IMG/VR virus record: IMGVR_UViG_3300045988_014834
Coordinates: 1-41,350 of that record
Length of the DNA: 41,350 bases
Reading direction: 5' to 3' (one strand)
Source: a virus
Lineage: Duplodnaviria > Heunggongvirae > Uroviricota > Caudoviricetes
The notes below the pieces were generated by a model. That model did not search any database, had not been told where the DNA came from, and saw only the letters and a list, made by a program, of their open reading frames with translations. Of the stretch, positions 8,307-30,203 are shown piece after piece. The position numbers were made by a program, and so were the translations under genes. The first letter of the stretch is position 1; every line of letters starts with the position of its first letter.

Positions 8307-8460
8307 TTTTACACAAGCAATAGAGTATGGCCCTTCCGAACGCGTCAGCGTAACTACACTCAGGACTTACGTCCCGCTCCGTTACCTGCCCGCGCCGCGG
8401 TCGCTTGTTCACACTTCACAAGCTCAGGAGGAGCTTAGCACACTTTTAGTGAAAAGTCAA
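8307..8460. repeat. Conserved ~150-bp noncoding element, copy A (second copy 20382-20525)
   Basis: About 75 percent identity to copy B with compensatory changes in a hairpin (GGAC-TTAC-GTCC here, GTGCC-TAAT-GGCAC in B). Confidence 0.6.
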
Positions 8461-8522
8461 CTATTCGAATAGTTTATTCCAACATTTACAATTTAGTGGA
8501 ATAACTGGAATACATAAATAGT

Positions 8523-8551
8523 TTGCACACCCCGATATAATAGGGTACTAT
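8523..8551 (+). promoter_or_regulatory. Early promoter copy (TTGCAC N17 TACTAT) driving the methyltransferase
   Basis: TTGCACACCCCGATATAATAGGGTACTATTCAG. Confidence 0.6.
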
Positions 8552-8579
8552 TCAGTTAACTTGAACAGCAGGAGTTAAA

Positions 8580-9308
8580 ATGTTTACTTTGAAACGTGGG
8601 GATTGTCTGGAGTTGATGCATGACGTACCAGATAAGAGTGTAGACCTTATTTTATGCGATTTACCTTATGGTACGACGCAAAACAAATGGGATACGGTAA
8701 TACCTTTCGATGCCCTATGGGGCCATTACATGCGTATTTCTCGCGGTGCTATTGTGCTAACAGCAGCGCAACCTTTCACTAGCGCGTTGATTATGAGTAA
8801 TGCTAAATTGTTCAAATACTCGTGGGTTTGGGATAAGGCAAATAGCACTGGATTCCTTAACGCTAAAAAGCAACCTTTACGCCGAACAGAGGACGTGGTT
8901 GTATTTTATGGCTCACAGCCAACCTATAACCCTCAAATGGAAGTTAGAGGTAAGCCCCGTAAGAAAGGTGGGTATATTAAAAAAGACGGCTCTGACAACT
9001 ATGGGTCTTTTAAAAGTGTAGAATCTGTTAGTAATGATTACTACCCCACCAATTTGATAGAAATATCTAATGCTAATAGGTCGGAAAAGTGCCACCCCAC
9101 CCAAAAACCAGTAGCGTTGATGGAATACCTGATTAAGACGTATACAAACGAAGGGGATACAGTTCTTGATAACTGTATGGGCAGCGGGACGACCGGAGTT
9201 GCGTGTGCGAACACAAACCGGAAGTTTATAGGCATGGAGTTAGACCGTGATTACTTCCGTATAGCCAGAAGACGCATATCTGAAGCATATAAAACTAAGG
9301 CCCCTTAA
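8580..9308 (+). CDS. Orphan DNA methyltransferase (N6-adenine/N4-cytosine beta-class), 242 aa
   Basis: Catalytic-motif region DLILCDLPYG followed later by the AdoMet motif HPTQKP...VLDNCMGSGTT; no restriction enzyme partner nearby. Confidence 0.85.
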   Translation: MFTLKRGDCLELMHDVPDKSVDLILCDLPYGTTQNKWDTVIPFDALWGHYMRISRGAIVLTAAQPFTSALIMSNAKLFKYSWVWDKANSTGFLNAKKQPLRRTEDVVVFYGSQPTYNPQMEVRGKPRKKGGYIKKDGSDNYGSFKSVESVSNDYYPTNLIEISNANRSEKCHPTQKPVALMEYLIKTYTNEGDTVLDNCMGSGTTGVACANTNRKFIGMELDRDYFRIARRRISEAYKTKAP

Positions 9309-9320
9309 GGGGCCTTTTAT
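9295..9320. terminator. Bidirectional hairpin terminator (AAGGCCCC-TTAA-GGGGCCTT)
   Basis: Perfect hairpin between convergent genes. Confidence 0.65.
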
Positions 9321-10893: not shown

Positions 10894-12387
10894 TTACTGC
10901 TGGGTGGTGTCCTGTTGCTGCGCCGACTGCGGAATTTCTCCTGCTACCTGAGAAACAGCACCTAACGGCAGAGGCACATCTTCGATAGCGTTCTGAATGT
11001 CCTCATCTGTCCAGTCAGTTACGCCAGCTTTACGCAATGCCGCGTAATAAGCGGTAGCCGGTAGCAGGCCTGCGTTGATATCGGCCATCCACTGAGCACG
11101 GTCCTGAGCGGTCATCGGTTGCAGGAAGAACTCCATATTCAGCTTGAACTCAATCTCAGTACCGTCACTAAGCCCAAGCATACCAGCTACCCATTTCAGC
11201 GCATCGGTATACGCCATGCTTACGTTACGTGCGATTGTTGCCATAACGGACGTATCAGCGCCGCGTTGCAGGCGTGCCGATTCAGCAGTGATTTGCTGCG
11301 TCGGGGTGATAAGCTGCGCGCCAATCTGGATGGCCTGATTCTCTTTATCCAGCATGTTCTGCTTGGCAAGATTGTTCTCTCCTGCCTGAACCAGAAACGC
11401 ATTGCCGCCGTAACCAATGTTATGGCCTGAACGCGACCCCATGCGCACGCCGTGAGGGTTAGCTTCTTTCCACTGCGCCATGCTCATATTCTCACCGGGA
11501 GCGATGAACAGAGTAGGCTGGCCTACGACGAAGCTGGACTCCTCATTGTCTGCGCTGTTGCGGAAGTGTCCAATATTGAGTTCAGCCAACGGCAGCAAAG
11601 GTGCATCGTCAGGGGTTGAGTCGTTATTCCCCGCGCCAATGAACGTGAACGGAATCACCCCGACCGGAATATTACCGAGTTTCGGGAAGATTTCGATATA
11701 GCCACCTTCCATCAGTGCGCCTTTCTGGTTAAAGCGGTACAGACGCTGGCGATACTGGCCTTCGAAGATATCAAGGACGCGGTATTGCTCGCCGTAGTTT
11801 GGGCTAAACTCATCCGTGCCGTCGGTGTACTCATATTCTTCACACAATACGACCATAACCACGCGATTGACCGACCCTACGCGCTCGAGGCGCCAGTTGA
11901 TGATGTTCTCTGCGGTGTAGAAAGCGATTGTCGGGTTAAGTAAGCCCTCGTTTTGCTCAGCCATAGTGGCGACTTCTACCGCGGGGGCATCAACCAGCAA
12001 ACCGCCACGTCCGACAGCGTCAATCTCATACAGGGTATCCTGAGCGTGCTGCCACAGGCCGACACCAGACCCGTCGCAGTTAGTGGTCAGGTACTCCATC
12101 TGAGACGGAATAATCATCTCGGGGTCTTTGCGCATTACGCTGCCTACCATACCGGAAAGCGTTCGCTTGGTGAAGTTGTAGCAAATAGCCCCTGCTTCAT
12201 ATTCGGCCTGACGCTGGCGACCATACACAGGGTCCGGCTCATTCTTGCCGACGTCACGTAAATACGATGTAAGGTCGCCAGAAAGAGCATGTCGCACCTT
12301 CTGCCACTTAGGGAAATACTCTTCGTACTGGCGGTGGCGGGTTTTAACGTTCTGCCCTTGCCCTGCGTTACTGTTTGCGGAAACCAT
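10894..12387 (-). CDS. Portal protein, 497 aa
   Basis: Immediately downstream of the terminase large subunit; size; acidic Gln-rich C-terminus. Confidence 0.7.
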   Translation of the reverse strand: MVSANSNAGQGQNVKTRHRQYEEYFPKWQKVRHALSGDLTSYLRDVGKNEPDPVYGRQRQAEYEAGAICYNFTKRTLSGMVGSVMRKDPEMIIPSQMEYLTTNCDGSGVGLWQHAQDTLYEIDAVGRGGLLVDAPAVEVATMAEQNEGLLNPTIAFYTAENIINWRLERVGSVNRVVMVVLCEEYEYTDGTDEFSPNYGEQYRVLDIFEGQYRQRLYRFNQKGALMEGGYIEIFPKLGNIPVGVIPFTFIGAGNNDSTPDDAPLLPLAELNIGHFRNSADNEESSFVVGQPTLFIAPGENMSMAQWKEANPHGVRMGSRSGHNIGYGGNAFLVQAGENNLAKQNMLDKENQAIQIGAQLITPTQQITAESARLQRGADTSVMATIARNVSMAYTDALKWVAGMLGLSDGTEIEFKLNMEFFLQPMTAQDRAQWMADINAGLLPATAYYAALRKAGVTDWTDEDIQNAIEDVPLPLGAVSQVAGEIPQSAQQQDTTQQ

Positions 12388-12398
12388 TTGTTGTCCTC

Positions 12399-13649
12399 TT
12401 AAAGTGCGAAAGTCACCGGGATGTTGATTACTGGTTTAACCACCGGCATCTCGTAAACTACAGGATAGCCGAGAGCATCCGCCATATGGTCAATGATGCC
12501 GTCTTTAGCTGGCTCTCCGTTATCGTCGTATGCCTGCTGTTCCAGCGTCTTCGCTATCTCAGGGCATAAGTGGTCATTAACCCACAGCTTACCTTTTTCC
12601 AACGCGGTATTCACTGCTAAAACACGGTCTTTAACCGGGGGGTTGGCGGATTTAGTGCGAACATCAAACCCGGCCTGCTGTAGTAATGCGATATCAGAGA
12701 TTGACGCTGAGTTGGTTTTGCGGTTCTTGCCGCTGGCGTCGGGGTAAACGACGATGCTGTGACCTTGCGACTTCCACTTCTCGGTAATTACGCGCACGGT
12801 GTCCGGCGTGTCGAACAGGCCTTTCAGTTCTGCTACCGCGTGCCAGCCGTCTTTACGCTGCACGTATACGGCACTTGCGTTCTTCGTAACGTTGAAGTCC
12901 TGCCCAATGTACAGCGTGTCACCTGGTTGAATTGTCTCTTTGCTGCGGTGCTTACGGCGGTCATACGCGTAATACACGCTGCCGGAGGTAAGGTTGACGA
13001 ACTCACCATTCAGGTACGCGTTAATTAATTGCGCGGGGTAAGTCTCAGTCAGTGAGCTAATGTAGTCAGGCGGCAGGAATCGCGCATTCTCGTGTGTGGA
13101 AGCCTGCACCATCGAGTAACTTGGCGTCGGATTCTCTTTGAACTTGGCATAGACGAACTTAAACCCTTCCGGCGTCGTGGTGACAGAGATGTGGTTAATT
13201 ACACCGGGAATAACCAGACGCATACGGGCTACTATTTTGTTCCACGCCAGCTCCGCTTTTTCTCGGCTCAATACGTCCAACTCATCGACGACCGCAGCCG
13301 CGATTTTGAAACCAACAATCGAGCCAGGGTTATCCATTGAACGGCAGATAACTGTACCTAACACTGTCTTACCGCGGGTGACAACAACTTCTTTGTCGCC
13401 AGATTTAACCAGCACATCGAGGCCTAGCAGGTTAGCGGCTTCCTCAAATGTCGGGTAGAAGATGTCGCGAATAGCCGGGTATGTGGGCCCGAAGTAGCCG
13501 AGGCGCGTACCGGGGTGCTTGAGCATAAACGTAAGTAAGTCCAGACAGCCAACAAAGGTTTTGCCGCTTCCGAAGCCGCCAACGTAGGCCTTGTATTTAT
13601 TGTCGCAATTCAGGAACAGTGCCTGTGGTGCGGATAGCTGAATACTCAT
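12399..13649 (-). CDS. Terminase large subunit, 416 aa
   Basis: Walker A GGFGSGKT near the N-terminus; position ahead of portal. Confidence 0.85.
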   Translation of the reverse strand: MSIQLSAPQALFLNCDNKYKAYVGGFGSGKTFVGCLDLLTFMLKHPGTRLGYFGPTYPAIRDIFYPTFEEAANLLGLDVLVKSGDKEVVVTRGKTVLGTVICRSMDNPGSIVGFKIAAAVVDELDVLSREKAELAWNKIVARMRLVIPGVINHISVTTTPEGFKFVYAKFKENPTPSYSMVQASTHENARFLPPDYISSLTETYPAQLINAYLNGEFVNLTSGSVYYAYDRRKHRSKETIQPGDTLYIGQDFNVTKNASAVYVQRKDGWHAVAELKGLFDTPDTVRVITEKWKSQGHSIVVYPDASGKNRKTNSASISDIALLQQAGFDVRTKSANPPVKDRVLAVNTALEKGKLWVNDHLCPEIAKTLEQQAYDDNGEPAKDGIIDHMADALGYPVVYEMPVVKPVINIPVTFAL

Positions 13650-14230
13650 TCCTCTACCTCGCCCATATTAGTTGTTACGATTTTACCTACTGGCTCAGCG
13701 ACACTGAAAACAATCTCAGTCGGTGCCGTTTCTTCGGTGGATTCAACTGGTTTCTCTTTGCTAAGGCCGAGCTTAGCCGCGGCAAACGTAGCTGAGATAC
13801 CTGCGGCCCCTGTCTCGGTGAAATATGCCTCTTCCAGTGCCTGTGCGGTCTCGTAGGCTTCTGCGAATGCGGGAATCTCACGCAGCCACAGCTTAATAAT
13901 CGGGATAGTGACACCAATATGTAAGGCGAAGCGGGCCAGCGACGGTGGTTTATCCTGAATCAGCGGGCGTTCGTCGCCTTTGGACGTAGGCACAAGCTCC
14001 CATGACGTGCGGTCGAAGAACTCGATTAACGCGTCGCAATAGTCCGGGTCCCACAACGCAGCGGAATTACGGGATGATTGATAAAGGCTCTGTTTGCCGC
14101 GCGGTCGTTTACGACGACGGTTTGCGCTAACTGCTTCTTCATGTGCAGCTTGCACCACCTCTGGCGATGGCTGCTTGAGTTTCAGCTTCATAGAATCCCC
14201 TTGCATATGCGTCTGACCATCAGAGCGCAT
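13646..14230 (-). CDS. Terminase small subunit candidate (likely start at the ATG near 14191)
   Basis: Coupled upstream of the large subunit; basic N-terminal region. Confidence 0.45.
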   Translation of the reverse strand: MRSDGQTHMQGDSMKLKLKQPSPEVVQAAHEEAVSANRRRKRPRGKQSLYQSSRNSAALWDPDYCDALIEFFDRTSWELVPTSKGDERPLIQDKPPSLARFALHIGVTIPIIKLWLREIPAFAEAYETAQALEEAYFTETGAAGISATFAAAKLGLSKEKPVESTEETAPTEIVFSVAEPVGKIVTTNMGEVEE

Positions 14231-14256
14231 CAGACGCGCCCTACGCGTCTAAAGGG

Positions 14257-14290
14257 ATTATATAAGGGGATTGGGTGGGATGTACAGAAA
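14257..14290 (-). promoter_or_regulatory. Candidate late promoter: perfect -10 TATAAT, poor -35
   Basis: Minus-strand TATAAT at 14262-14257, just after the early-operon terminator and upstream of the terminase genes. Confidence 0.35.
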
Positions 14291-14318: not shown

Positions 14319-14474
14319 CTATTCGGTTATATCGCCGCCGTCTACCAGTGCGATTGGTATTCTAACTTCGCCGTTGAATGTTTCGGCGTACCAGAACTTC
14401 TCGCACTGCGTTACGCTGAAAACATCGAGTTCTGACGTAGCGCCTGTTTTCCAGTAGATAGTTAACTTTTTCAT
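14319..14474 (-). CDS. Small protein, 51 aa (ORF below track cutoff)
   Basis: ATGA overlap with the upstream HTH gene; terminator downstream. Confidence 0.35.
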   Translation of the reverse strand: MKKLTIYWKTGATSELDVFSVTQCEKFWYAETFNGEVRIPIALVDGGDITE

Positions 14475-14731
14475 TCCCCACTCTCCTCTTTAGCAATGCG
14501 TTGCTCTGTTTTAGTGATACCCCGGCGCGTGAATAACACCGGGCTTGTTTTAACGTGTGTCATCAGACGATTGTTATAAATTACGTGGCGCTCGCAATCG
14601 ACGTCTTTACTGTACTTCGCAATCGTCATTTCGTTGATGCCGGTTTGTCGGCAAGTCTCTGCCATCGTGCCGTATTCTTTAATCAGGTTCGGAATGCTGG
14701 TAATCATCCTAAGAAATTCCTCGTTGTCCAC
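14471..14731 (-). CDS. Small HTH DNA-binding protein (likely start ATG at 14707, 78 aa)
   Basis: HTH-like segment MAETCRQTGINEMTIAKYSKD; last large gene of the small-gene operon. Confidence 0.45.
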   Translation of the reverse strand: MDNEEFLRMITSIPNLIKEYGTMAETCRQTGINEMTIAKYSKDVDCERHVIYNNRLMTHVKTSPVLFTRRGITKTEQRIAKEESGE

Positions 14732-14874
14732 ATCGCATTCGGATATTTGTTATCGCGGTCCTGCACTACAGCAATCATGTTACCGCGTTGCACGAGGCAG
14801 AAGTGGCGTTGCTGCTCGCCGTTGTAGCGACGCCAGATTGCTTCTTCGATTGCTGCGTTGATGTCACTGAACAT
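14704..14874 (-). CDS. Small protein, 56 aa
   Basis: ATG start, stop overlaps the next ATG. Confidence 0.35.
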   Translation of the reverse strand: MFSDINAAIEEAIWRRYNGEQQRHFCLVQRGNMIAVVQDRDNKYPNAMWTTRNFLG

Positions 14875-14876
14875 AA

Positions 14877-15059
14877 CTACCCCACTATCTCATCACCAAG
14901 CCACGCCGTTTCTCGTATATCGTCAACCACACAGGCGGCGTGCTCACGGCTAATTGCAAAAATGTAGAAGCTGAACTTCTTCCCGTCGGCGTCGATGTGG
15001 TTAACCGAGTAAGGTTTCCACAGGACGCCATCAATTACTACTGGTTCAGGCGCTTTCAT
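14877..15059 (-). CDS. Small protein, 60 aa
   Basis: Track ORF in a coupled series. Confidence 0.35.
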   Translation of the reverse strand: MKAPEPVVIDGVLWKPYSVNHIDADGKKFSFYIFAISREHAACVVDDIRETAWLGDEIVG

Positions 15060-15198
15060 TCTTCATGCGCTCAAGTAACAACTTAAACGCCTCCAGTTGA
15101 AACTCACCGTTAATCGACAGTTGCCCGCCTAACGTCTGTTTCTCCGACTCAAGCACCATAATACGGCGCTCGAGCGATGCTATTGTGATTTTAGGCAT
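15046..15198 (-). CDS. Small coiled-coil protein, 50 aa
   Basis: Heptad-like leucine pattern; overlaps neighbours by a few nt. Confidence 0.3.
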   Translation of the reverse strand: MPKITIASLERRIMVLESEKQTLGGQLSINGEFQLEAFKLLLERMKNESA

Positions 15199-15376
15199 TG
15201 GTGTCACCTTTGTTCAGGTTGAAGCGGTTAATCAGTTCACGGCGTGTCTCGTACAGCGACTCTACCATTTGCTCGGCTACCGCGATTTTAGTATTCAGGA
15301 CGTACATCACGTGGCTGATATCTACGCCGCTGTTAACGGCCTCTACCATCATCTTTTCGTAGTCGCGGTCAGTCAT
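15191..15376 (-). CDS. Small protein, 61 aa
   Basis: Track ORF, coupled. Confidence 0.35.
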   Translation of the reverse strand: MTDRDYEKMMVEAVNSGVDISHVMYVLNTKIAVAEQMVESLYETRRELINRFNLNKGDTNA

Positions 15377-15531
15377 TCCTTACGCTCTCCCCACATGCGA
15401 TTGAGATACTTGTTCTTGTCCGGCCCCGGGAAACTGTTACGTTTCATCAGTTCCTCGCGTGTCGGGAACGGGGTGTGATTGACTTTACGGCCTACTCGTA
15501 ATGGTGTGCTTACTGGGCCTTGTTCGCTCAT
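15373..15531 (-). CDS. Small protein, 52 aa
   Basis: ATGA overlaps on both sides. Confidence 0.3.
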   Translation of the reverse strand: MSEQGPVSTPLRVGRKVNHTPFPTREELMKRNSFPGPDKNKYLNRMWGERKE

Positions 15532-15677
15532 TTCTTCTCTCCTGCATATGCTGCTTTCAGGGTCTGCATCGCAGCGAACCAGAACGCGGCCGCCGGGATG
15601 CTGTTGCTCAGGTTACTAACGGCGATGCGTGCCATCAGTTGTGCGTCTTTAAATGCTTCGATATCTGTGATTTTCAT
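15528..15677 (-). CDS. Small protein, 49 aa, first gene after the promoter
   Basis: GGAG upstream of the ATG; about 25 nt downstream of the predicted start site. Confidence 0.3.
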   Translation of the reverse strand: MKITDIEAFKDAQLMARIAVSNLSNSIPAAAFWFAAMQTLKAAYAGEKK

Positions 15678-15710: not shown

Positions 15711-15739
15711 AATATAGTAGGGTCGAGGGTAATAGTCAA
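15711..15739 (-). promoter_or_regulatory. Near-consensus sigma70 promoter: TTGACT, 17 nt, TATATT
   Basis: Minus strand reads TTGACTattaccctcgaccctacTATATT. Confidence 0.6.
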
Positions 15740-15760
15740 CTAGTCATTGCAGAAAATAGA

Positions 15761-15858: not shown

Positions 15859-16347
15859 TCAACCTTTCACCGCGCGCCCAATAGCCTCAGCCTCCCGCCA
15901 CGGTTTACCGTCGAATAGTGCAAGACGTCCCGCGGTACGGCGACGCAGGCCGAGTAATGGTTTGCCGTTCTGGTTGATGAACAGCGCCAGCTTAGCCCGC
16001 AGCGTCGAGATATCGCCGGAACGCAGCGCCTTACCTGTGCCAGTAGTAGCGGCAATCACACCAGCACCTGCGTTGTATACCAGGTCACACACTGCGTCGA
16101 ACTGCGCCTGGGTCAGTGAATGGTGTGCTGCTGCATCAACCGCAACTACAGCCTTAGCCATATCACGATTCAGTAACAGGAGGCCTTGCCCCTTCGTAAT
16201 CTTCTGCCCTTCGTACACATGAGGGCCATAGCTTCCGTAGCCTATGGTTAAGTATTTTTCCGAAGGTGTCGCGCGGTATGCGGTCCCGCGGAATCCCTCG
16301 AACGCAGCGGTAAAATGCAATCCATTATCTGAAATGTTTCGAGACAC
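15859..16347 (-). CDS. Endolysin (GH24 lysozyme, T4 E / P22 gp19-like), 162 aa
   Basis: Catalytic region FEGFRGTAY...TIGYG and conserved C-terminal motifs; adjacent to holin-like genes. Confidence 0.85.
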   Translation of the reverse strand: MSRNISDNGLHFTAAFEGFRGTAYRATPSEKYLTIGYGSYGPHVYEGQKITKGQGLLLLNRDMAKAVVAVDAAAHHSLTQAQFDAVCDLVYNAGAGVIAATTGTGKALRSGDISTLRAKLALFINQNGKPLLGLRRRTAGRLALFDGKPWREAEAIGRAVKG

Positions 16348-16597
16348 GCTTATGCCCTCCGTATGATAGCCACGCCTGGCGAATCTGACGCAGCGAAACT
16401 AATGTGATTAATGTCTCCGGCAGCGTCGGCGACATGCCACCCTGTAACAGGTGAATACACCCGGCAGCGCAGACGATAGCAGTCAGGATATAGAGCACCC
16501 GACCAAATATCCCGTCGTCAACGCTGGGGTGATACACGTTAAACAGCGATGTGCCTCCGATCGCCAGCATACCGCCGAACCAGAATAACTCATTCAT
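16325..16597 (-). CDS. Holin/antiholin-like membrane protein, 90 aa
   Basis: Two predicted transmembrane helices; between holin and endolysin. Confidence 0.4.
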   Translation of the reverse strand: MNELFWFGGMLAIGGTSLFNVYHPSVDDGIFGRVLYILTAIVCAAGCIHLLQGGMSPTLPETLITLVSLRQIRQAWLSYGGHKRVSKHFR

Positions 16598-16898
16598 CTG
16601 TGCCTCCTCGACGTTCGATGTATTCTCCGGCTACGATGCCAGAAAGGCGGGAATAGATAGGCATCCAGAGAATGGCAATGATGAATCCGAGGCCAGCTAT
16701 CTCGCGCTCACCGGTAATACCGAACCATTGGGCAGCAAGAGGCGCGCCGAAAATGGCACACGCGAAGCCGGTTAGAAGAAATACCAGTCCGTCAATCGGC
16801 CCGGATATAGACTTTTTATGTTGTCTTAGTCCGACCAATCCACCTACCAGCGCGGCAGCGAGAAGCCACCCCGTCACTGTTTCAGTAAATTTATCCAA
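16590..16898 (-). CDS. Holin-like membrane protein, 102 aa
   Basis: Three hydrophobic helices, charged C-terminus, just upstream of the endolysin. Confidence 0.5.
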   Translation of the reverse strand: MDKFTETVTGWLLAAALVGGLVGLRQHKKSISGPIDGLVFLLTGFACAIFGAPLAAQWFGITGEREIAGLGFIIAILWMPIYSRLSGIVAGEYIERRGGTDE

Positions 16899-18276: not shown

Positions 18277-18307
18277 ATTCTGTCTCTCCTCTCGTTCGTG
18301 TAAATGA

Positions 18308-18336
18308 ATAGTAGCCTATTCTATCTTAGCGTGCAA
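18308..18336 (-). promoter_or_regulatory. Promoter TTGCAC, 17 nt, TACTAT (early-type, divergent spacer)
   Basis: Minus strand TTGCACgctaagatagaataggcTACTATTCA. Confidence 0.5.
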
Positions 18337-20153: not shown

Positions 20154-20187
20154 TTCTGAATTCCTTATGTCTCGTTCCGATAAGTGA

Positions 20188-20216
20188 ATAGTATACTATT
20201 ATGTTGGGGTGTGCAA
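20188..20216 (-). promoter_or_regulatory. Early promoter copy (TTGCAC N17 TACTAT) for the leftward early operon
   Basis: Minus strand TTGCACACCCCAACATAATAGTATACTATTCAC. Confidence 0.6.
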
Positions 20217-23855: not shown

Positions 23856-23919
23856 GTCAATTACTCCTTAGTCAGTTGATATGTGAATAGTACCATATTA
23901 ATTATTTTAGAAAAGCCCA

Positions 23920-23948
23920 TTGACAAGTGAATAGCTCGCTATTATAGT
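23920..23948 (+). promoter_or_regulatory. Middle promoter TTGACA, 17 nt, TATAGT with embedded palindrome AATAG-N4-CTATT (23930-23943)
   Basis: ttgacaagtgAATAGctcgCTATTatagtt. Confidence 0.55.
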
Positions 23949-26522: not shown

Positions 26523-26552
26523 TTGACAACCTGAATAGTTAGCTATTATAGT
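26523..26552 (+). promoter_or_regulatory. Middle promoter TTGACA ... TATAGT with palindrome AATAG-N4-CTATT (26534-26547)
   Basis: ttgacaacctgAATAGttagCTATTatagtt. Confidence 0.5.
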
Positions 26553-29922: not shown

Positions 29923-30203
29923 CTAAAGAGGGCCGCGTACAGAAATACGCAAAGGAGCGATTCGAGGCCCTCGGGGGCCTCGTTCGAAAGCTGTCTTATG
30001 AGGGACGCTCCGGCGCCCCCGACCTCCTGGTAATTCTCCCCGGCGGCATTGTCTGGTTTGTCGAGGTTAAGAAAGACGAAAATACGAAGCCAGACCCGCA
30101 CCAGTTACGTGAACATGAGAGATTTCGAAAACGTGGTGCAAATGTTTTTGTCGTCGGTTCGTTTAAACAGGTTGACGACCTAATAGCGAACTATTATAGT
30201 TAG
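29919..30203 (+). CDS. VRR-NUC domain nuclease, 94 aa
   Basis: Core PDLLVILPGGIVWFVEVKK (D...E.K PD-(D/E)XK pattern). Confidence 0.55.
   Translation: MTKEGRVQKYAKERFEALGGLVRKLSYEGRSGAPDLLVILPGGIVWFVEVKKDENTKPDPHQLREHERFRKRGANVFVVGSFKQVDDLIANYYS
30172..30200 (+). promoter_or_regulatory. Middle promoter TTGACG, 17 nt, TATAGT with palindrome AATAG-N4-CTATT (30182-30195)
   Basis: ttgacgacctAATAGcgaaCTATTatagtt, inside the 3' end of the VRR-NUC gene. Confidence 0.5.

Follow-up and report, generated by a model that had tools for sequence, protein, structure and literature searches.

What drives transcription of the packaging genes in K1G-like siphophages, and in what form the resulting transcript begins, is the question raised by a short region directly upstream of terS, the gene of the small terminase subunit. 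The region lies on the minus strand of a 41,350-nucleotide (nt) stretch of viral DNA (positions 1 to 41,350 of IMG/VR record IMGVR_UViG_3300045988_014834), referred to here as the window, which covers nearly all of a K1G-like siphophage genome (Kagunavirus, Guernseyvirinae). An earlier reading made from the letters of the window alone (the original prediction) had proposed a late promoter at this site, followed by a palindromic leader that might be a regulatory or packaging-related structure. The best explanation of the whole region, held here with about even confidence, is a sigma-70 promoter of the packaging operon followed by a stabilising RNA leader of two hairpins. By sequence comparison, this module is conserved in more than 600 related phage genome records.

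The order of elements on the minus strand in the 5' to 3' direction was terminator, -35 element, spacer, -10 element, hairpin 1 (H1), a 1-nt linker, hairpin 2 (H2), Shine-Dalgarno sequence (SD) and the ATG of terS. The individual elements were as follows.

14309-14284, minus strand: intrinsic terminator, an 8-base-pair (bp) perfect inverted repeat AAGCCCTC-TACT-GAGGGCTT followed by TTTTCT (in RNA, AAGCCCUC-UACU-GAGGGCUU followed by UUUUCU).
14286-14281, minus strand: -35-like hexamer TGTACA, weak (4/6), with an 18-nt C-rich spacer to the -10 hexamer.
14262-14257, minus strand: -10 hexamer TATAAT.
Between the -10 box and H1, minus strand: CCCTTT.
14250 (14249-14251), minus strand: predicted transcription start at an A, 7 nt after the -10 box and identical with the first nucleotide of H1.
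14250-14232, minus strand: H1, AGACGCG(U)-AGG-(G)CGCGUCU, a stem of 7-8 bp with an (A/U)GG triloop and arms at 14250-14244 and 14238-14232.
Between H1 and H2, minus strand: linker G, 1 nt.
14230-14207, minus strand: H2, AUGCG-C-UCUGA-UGG-UCAGA-CGCAU, a 5-bp lower stem, a 1-nt bulge and a 5-bp upper stem with a UGG triloop closed by A-U.
Between H2 and the SD, minus strand: ATGC, 4 nt.
14202-14196, minus strand: SD of terS, AAGGGGA, 4 nt past H2 and 4 nt (TTCT) before the ATG.

The same order (terminator, -35, -10, H1, H2, SD, ATG) was found in all collected terS-upstream regions, which comprised 49 IMG/VR loci retrieved with the window TerS, more loci retrieved with the TerS of phiEap-2 and L057, and further regions from GenBank phages, Dhillonviruses and metagenomes. 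The original prediction had named the TATAAT with its poor -35, the inverted repeat AGACGCG/CGCGTCT (TAGGG between the arms) and the position right after the terminator of the small-gene operon, and all three were present as described, the 8-bp hairpin and TTTTCT lying directly upstream. It had also named repeated CTGATG motifs. TCTGATG did occur twice (14234-14228 and 14224-14218), but it was not conserved as a repeat in distant clades, and CTGATG was rejected as an independent motif since it forms the 5' side of H2, which that reading had missed.

The evidence on the leader is mainly comparative. RNAalifold on 25 distinct leaders recovered both hairpins with no broken pairs, and 12 of 13 clade representatives folded alone into the same two-hairpin shape. 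The leader also folded better than its shuffles, with z values of -2.6 for 77 nt and -2.9 for the 48-nt core. Pairs were counted over H1 (7 bp) and the H2 apex (5 bp) in three alignments of 21, 31 and 37 distinct sequences, in which 98.0%, 98.4% and 97.9% of the cells were paired, respectively. Four pairs changed on both sides, none of 500 column shuffles matched the observed pairing or covariation score, and pairing fell to 17-53% when the partners were slid by 1-3 columns. The upper stem of H2 occurred as UCUGA/UCAGA, UAUGA/UCAUA, UGCGA/UCGCA, GCCGA/UCGGC and GUGA/UCAC, and its lower stem as AUGCG/CGCAU, GUGUA/UACAC, CUGUG/CACAG and UAUGC/GCAUA, while the H1 stem of Serratia phage Smarc3 was wholly different (AAGGCCC/GGGCUUU) with its AGG loop unchanged. 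The loops were fixed throughout, with (A/U)GG followed by G in H1 and UGG closed by A-U in H2 (GAUGGUC in nearly all clades, UAUGGUA in S11a).

The geometry of the region was kept as well. The two-hairpin element measured 44 nt, and the 5' untranslated region (UTR) would be 59 nt in the window if transcription starts at 14250 and 59-66 nt in the 13 clade representatives. Across clades the distance from the -10 box to the first pair of H1 was 6-9 nt, H1 and H2 were 0-3 nt apart, and 1-6 nt separated H2 from a purine-rich SD that was found at the same position in all clades.

The changes that kept a pair while altering only one side were all G.U or U.G on the sense strand (A-U to G.U, C-G to U.G, G-C to G.U). 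On the antisense strand the same changes are A.C mismatches, and the symmetry of the DNA palindrome is broken by them. Because such changes give G.U pairs only in the sense strand, the structure acts as RNA, and what is selected is the sense-strand RNA, acting in cis. On this comparative evidence the leader qualifies as a conserved cis-regulatory RNA structure of the 5' UTR type. A search of Rfam produced no family, the best E-value being 0.51 at unrelated coordinates, and there was no gathering-level match in the window or in the loci of six relatives. As a structured 5' UTR the leader belongs to a familiar kind of RNA element; the motif itself is new, and the comparative support for it is unusually clean. 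Two other resemblances in the leader were discarded: a riboswitch-like alternative pairing GCGTCTGA/TCAGACGC, a side effect of the doubled TCTGATG, was confined to the E. coli clade, and a boxA-like CGCUCUGA was likewise seen in the E. coli clade only, in a segment that is paired inside H2.

BLAST located the module in approximately 470 Guernseyvirinae and 157 Dhillonvirus records, and it also stood ahead of terS in one Serratia phage and one Klebsiella phage. The leader was 64-78% identical between the window and distant clades, while the terS coding DNA and the DNA upstream of the terminator were approximately 54% identical versus 49-52% for shuffled controls. Between clades, identity fell to 31% over the aligned 125 amino acids (aa) for TerS, and the TerL of the window was 54% identical to the TerL of other clades. 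A scan of IMG/VR with a strict 18-base pattern returned 60 loci, including 2 chance matches; the others belonged to contigs from this phage group, and each of the new loci that was read had the element directly upstream of terS. A covariance model built from the leader alignment found one copy in the window (70 bits) and no second copy elsewhere in it. The model matched Smarc3, TS6, Dhillonvirus and S11a, and it matched all 20 metagenome loci whose TerS was at least 47% identical to the phiEap-2 type, with the match always ending approximately 15-20 nt before the ATG. In the metagenomes, which were searched with an alignment of four TerS sequences, none of 60 more distant loci was matched by the model, and a search of viral contigs with the Smarc3 TerS gave no matches.

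For the promoter, the single sequence and the comparison gave different pictures. Judged on its own sequence the window promoter, with an overall match of 10/12 (TGTACA and TATAAT), was not beyond chance: TATAAT occurred 12 times in the window versus approximately 18 expected, and a promoter scan called 10 promoter-like sites in 6 kb versus 5.5 in shuffles. The terS site was the sole TA[TC]AAT in the window with a perfect stem of at least 6 bp a few nucleotides or less after it. The real evidence is comparative, namely that the -10 box, the distance from it to the hairpin and both hairpins were kept across many diverged clades. The -10 was TATAAT or TACAAT in every clade examined, so that the third position alone varied, which is the least constrained -10 position in sigma-70 promoters. 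The spacer between -35 and -10 and the 6-9 nt between -10 and H1 diverged freely among clades. TGTACA was kept as -35 in the E. coli and Salmonella clades, TTGCCT or TTGCGT stood at exactly 17 nt in the phiEap-2, St162/TS6, Smarc3, S11a, L177, L180 and L183 clades, and Dhillonviruses carried an extended -10 TGTTATAAT. From these comparisons the terS site is very probably a real host-type promoter of the packaging genes, its activity and start site being what we infer from the conserved elements. In this comparison the promoter candidate of the original prediction was strengthened, with its -10 kept in all clades and a better -35 or an extended -10 in most relatives. The leader structure was likewise found conserved across clades (98% of cells paired, 0/500 shuffles). 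As to its proposed role, a regulatory RNA leader is favoured by the covariation, while the packaging-related part of that proposal is not upheld, given the sense-strand G.U pairs and the TerS identity of approximately 31%.

A plus-strand promoter at the same TATA-rich site was ruled out, as it was not conserved and the Salmonella clade reads GGATTGTACAG there. On the sense strand the promoter region (14251-14289) was G-poor and pyrimidine-rich, with 1 G in approximately 40 nt (0 in 44 nt in L071), and this composition was conserved in all clades though the sequence diverged. It might serve as a reservoir of anti-SD sequence or, on read-through RNA, in Rho loading.

The hairpin upstream of the promoter had the features of an intrinsic terminator, a G+C-rich stem, a U-tract and pairing that was kept in relatives through compensatory changes (CCCTC/GAGGG to CCCGC/GCGGG), and it is read as closing the upstream small-gene (nin-like/lysis) operon. 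A terminator followed by a promoter in this way is, as read here, the classic footprint of a promoter at an operon boundary. In the record of phage Snoke the homologue of this hairpin carries a terminator annotation, and in fBC-Eco01 it is predicted as terminator T23 (PMC9825357 supplement). The fBC-Eco01 paper predicts no promoter at the terS leader (PMC9825357), where it was probably missed since the record is linearised inside the module.

Taken as a sigma-70 promoter with a stabilising leader, the module would let the host RNA polymerase drive the packaging operon terS-terL-portal from right after the terminator of the small-gene operon. Transcription would start at approximately 14250, so that the messenger RNA would open with a compact 59-nt 5' UTR made up of H1, the linker, H2, 4 nt, the SD and the AUG. 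In E. coli, a 5'-terminal stem-loop blocks 5'-end-dependent decay by RppH and RNase E. H1 would be such a stem-loop and would shield the transcript from this decay, H1 and H2 together would lock up the leader and thereby keep the ribosome-binding site (RBS) exposed, and the (A/U)GG triloops would probably be contacted by a factor, of host or phage, that tunes expression. The predicted accessibility of the RBS with the native leader equalled or exceeded the shuffled-leader mean in 13 of 13 clade representatives, which is a weak trend.

Several points weigh against this explanation. In no single clade did the gain in RBS accessibility reach significance (median p 0.165), the -35 of the window is poor (4/6 at 18 nt), and the L070-like and L084-like clades had no recognisable -35. 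The literature yielded neither transcript maps nor start sites for Guernseyvirinae or Dhillonvirus. In addition, a plain 5' stabiliser needs neither a second hairpin nor conserved loops, and the role stated above is probably incomplete. It is possible, and tentatively proposed, that the twin-hairpin leader is a previously undescribed riboregulator whose triloops dock a host or phage factor or, in a put-like manner, RNA polymerase, and thereby set the timing and amount of terminase and portal across Guernseyvirinae, Dhillonvirus and related enterobacterial siphophages.

Among the rival explanations, the one that survived best takes H1 and H2 together as the operator of a trans-acting RNA-binding factor, of phage or host, that reads the (A/U)GG triloops. 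As only 4 nt lie between H2 and the SD, a bound factor would repress or time terS translation and, through coupling, translation of the whole operon. The constancy of the loops while the stems turned over fully, even in Smarc3, S11a and Dhillonvirus, speaks for it, as do the abutment of H2 on the SD in every clade and the consideration that a plain stabiliser would not need conserved loops. However, no candidate factor was identified, and TerS and TerL differ so strongly between the clades sharing the leader that neither is likely to be the sequence-specific factor. The hairpins overlap neither the SD nor the AUG, unlike most known translational operators, and the loops, AGG or UGG followed by G in H1 or by U in H2, are without the GGA core of CsrA sites, by which a CsrA/RsmA site was ruled out. 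Such an operator is considered rather unlikely.

A second rival is a put-like cis-acting antitermination RNA, in which the nascent leader would make RNA polymerase resist terminators such as the one at 10883-10868, and one promoter would serve a long structural operon. Two hairpins 0-3 nt apart directly after a promoter are also the arrangement of HK022 putL (PMC9378689), and the conserved loops together with hosts that are all Enterobacterales would fit a target on the host polymerase. Moreover, the portal gene is followed by a terminator-like hairpin with the next ATG 11 nt on and no promoter call between, and the conservation of the leader was independent of the downstream protein sequence. 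The leader is nevertheless only 44 nt long with stems of 7-8 bp and 10-12 bp, compared with approximately 70-73 nt, long irregular stems and a triplex for put (PMC9378689), and it is present as a single copy, at terS only. Homology to HK022 put was ruled out by this difference in size and by the covariance model, which had no match in the HK022 genome (best E 0.54, in tail genes). A put-like function is accordingly rated as improbable.

A third rival, which could coexist with the promoter and stabilising leader, is control of the type described for the T4 lysozyme gene, in which anti-SD segments of read-through transcripts would silence the SD of terS and transcripts started at the promoter would be translated. 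Two pyrimidine-rich complements of the SD were found, and only transcripts reading past the terminator would carry them.

14272-14264, minus strand: AAUCCCCUU, a perfect 9-nt complement of the SD.
14259-14251, minus strand: AAUCCCUUU, a second copy.

With these segments the predicted unpaired fraction of the RBS fell from approximately 0.65 to approximately 0.3-0.4 in read-through transcripts, and the cognate discriminator/SD pairs beat all but 36 of 5040 permutations (7 clades, which are not independent). Dinucleotide-shuffled upstream arms, however, sequestered the RBS almost equally (p 0.1-0.4), so that composition explains most of the effect, and the discriminator pairing was lost in the common natural variants CCATTT, CTATTT and CCAATT and in L039. 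The chance that this control operates at terS is judged to be low.

In some phages the packaging site pac lies in or beside terS, and in SPP1 it overlaps the terS promoter region. The palindromes could by analogy be a DNA site, either a pac or TerS-binding site for headful packaging or the operator of a transcription regulator, and their conserved apex sequences are readable as DNA in principle. Headful packaging is reported for these phages with pac not located (PMC10783031; PMC9825357), and no located pac site in them was found in the literature. Against a DNA site, the stem positions were free to change if pairing was kept, the one-sided changes were G.U-compatible in the sense strand only, the leader was conserved ahead of TerS proteins only approximately 31% identical, and there were no further copies elsewhere in the genome. 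The pac-site reading is disfavoured on these comparisons, and a DNA site of either kind is very improbable.

The weakest rival, that the segment is coding, either as TerS begun at ATG 14230 with a 13-residue N-terminal extension or as a regulatory upstream open reading frame (ORF), can be dismissed as extremely improbable: the ORF does span 13646-14230, in-frame AUG or GUG codons without a stop occur in E. coli, Salmonella, phiEap-2 (L053) and St162 (39, 39, 42 and 45 nt), the AGGG of the H1 loop lies 8 nt upstream of ATG 14230 and the extension is annotated in several database records, but a 1-nt indel breaks the frame in L054-L056 near phiEap-2, the L070 clade has no start codon at that position, in Dhillonvirus and S11a stop codons at varying positions close the frame ahead of the SD, the compensatory changes in the stems alter the encoded residues, the extension peptide shows no conservation, and the PHROG profile of TerS begins at MKLKLK. 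The true terS start is thus read as ATG 14191 (MKLKLK...) and not as the in-frame ATG 14230. Many records, including L051 (St162 gp32), annotate TerS from an ATG or GTG at the base of H2 or linearise the genome there. In Dhillonviruses, TerS is annotated from MHKRAYIM..., within H2 and the SD (L153 506-530, CHD5UKE2; L155-L169); because the SD (AAAGGG) and its spacing are conserved, the real start is probably the downstream ATG (MAEIK...).

The 1.2 kb around the terS leader showed 88-94% identity to many Escherichia phages of Kagunavirus and was related to hundreds of Salmonella Jersey-like phages, and all genes around the leader were carried on the minus strand.

15859-16898, minus strand: lysis genes.
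14319-15677, minus strand: a row of small nin-like ORFs.
13646-14191, minus strand: terS, small terminase, 181 aa, phrog_3064 (E 8e-74), from ATG 14191.
12399-13649, minus strand: terL, 416 aa.
10894-12387, minus strand: portal.
10883-10868, minus strand: terminator-like hairpin after portal.

Because no promoter or terminator was called between them, terL and portal are placed with terS in one probable transcription unit that extends to 10868. The hairpin directly after portal has the form AGCCCC-GAAA-GGGGCU followed by UUCUU, and the ATG of the next gene (10857) lies 11 nt past it with no promoter call between, so that transcription of the head genes further downstream would depend on read-through. 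One gene upstream of the terS promoter, an 86-aa protein (14471-14731, minus strand) belongs to phrog_268 and is NinH-like according to the annotation of several relatives. It showed 57-69% identity in the Salmonella, phiEap-2 and St162 clades, but no copy was seen in the flanking DNA of the L070 and L084 clades.

Within the packaging genes themselves (12399-14191), which were compared with L041, L036 and L053, the first approximately 154 residues of TerS were approximately 89% identical to Jersey-like Salmonella phages and the C-terminus differed, while the 416-aa TerL of the window was only approximately 54% identical to the 424-aa TerL of these phages. This pattern fits a mosaic joint inside the packaging module, with the tail of TerS swapped together with TerL. 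Two hairpins that read as terminators in both directions (AAGGCCCC...GGGGCCTT, each side bearing a T-run) were seen at 2316-2335 and 9297-9316. They flank the plus-strand ORFs 954-2084 and 8580-9308, which are set opposite within the minus-strand structural genes and look moron-like.

A different group of promoter-like sites was marked by the palindrome AATAGTnnnnCTATT, which had 22 matches on both strands of the window versus 2 expected.

681-694, 8452-8465, 8539-8552, 15731-15744, 18307-18320, 20187-20200, 23886-23899, 23930-23943, 26534-26547 and 30182-30195: palindrome AATAGTnnnnCTATT.

Approximately 10 other promoter-like sites of the window carried it between a strong TTGACA and a TATAGT-like -10 (for example at 23930, 26534 and 30182), and some copies were followed by GGGGTGTGCAAG. 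Such sites look like an operator-bearing promoter class. The motif corresponds to the 'phage promoters' reported by PHIRE in fBC-Eco01 (PMC9825357), even though no RNA polymerase is encoded by these phages. Because it is without this palindrome, the terS promoter is assigned to a regulatory class apart from these sites, and its timing is not readable from sequence.

Among coliphages and Salmonella phages, those of Guernseyvirinae and Dhillonvirus are some of the most often isolated, and their use in therapy and biocontrol is widely proposed, while their transcriptional programme is essentially unmapped. What is gained here is a promoter and an operon boundary, both well supported, for the packaging genes, corrected terS start codons for many database records, and a compact 44-nt RNA motif with strong covariation that is absent from Rfam and open to direct mutagenesis. 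Should a factor bind the loops, or should they act on RNA polymerase, the leader would offer a new handle on the timing of terminase in virulent siphophages without a polymerase of their own, and phage engineering would gain a small portable part; as nothing more than a 5' stabiliser, it would be a useful annotation of ordinary biology.

Compared with known systems, the terS site resembles the RinA-dependent terS promoter of staphylococcal phages, which is likewise a dedicated promoter directly ahead of terS, has a weak -35 and governs packaging and morphogenesis genes (PMC3152322), although no RinA-, Ogr- or Q-type activator or activator site was identified for the terS promoter studied here. 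The leader shares with putL and putR of HK022 the nature of a cis-acting RNA of two stem-loops just after a promoter of an enterobacterial siphophage, with no obvious dedicated protein, but put follows early promoters, occurs twice per genome and confers terminator resistance on RNA polymerase by way of the beta' zinc-binding domain (PMC9378689), whereas the terS leader is single-copy and always at terS. Repeats and a promoter just upstream of terS in a headful siphophage are also found in the SPP1-type pac region. In the terS leader, by contrast, the substitutions point to RNA pairing, and conservation is independent of the TerS sequence.

For gene e, the lysozyme gene of T4, McPheeters et al. 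reportedly found in 1986 that a hairpin conceals the RBS in early transcripts made by read-through, while late transcripts begin within that hairpin. The terS promoter similarly sits in sequence complementary to the downstream SD, as in gene e/soc-type control, but here the complementarity was no better than in composition-matched shuffles and was lost in natural variants. Finally, Emory, Bouvet and Belasco are said to have described the ompA 5' UTR in 1992 as a 5'-terminal stem-loop stabiliser of messenger RNA in E. coli. As in stabilisers of the ompA type, the leader hairpin of terS begins at the predicted 5' end or within 1-2 nt of it and is followed by a second hairpin and the RBS. No loop sequence is needed in the ompA type, whereas both triloops are conserved in the terS leader.

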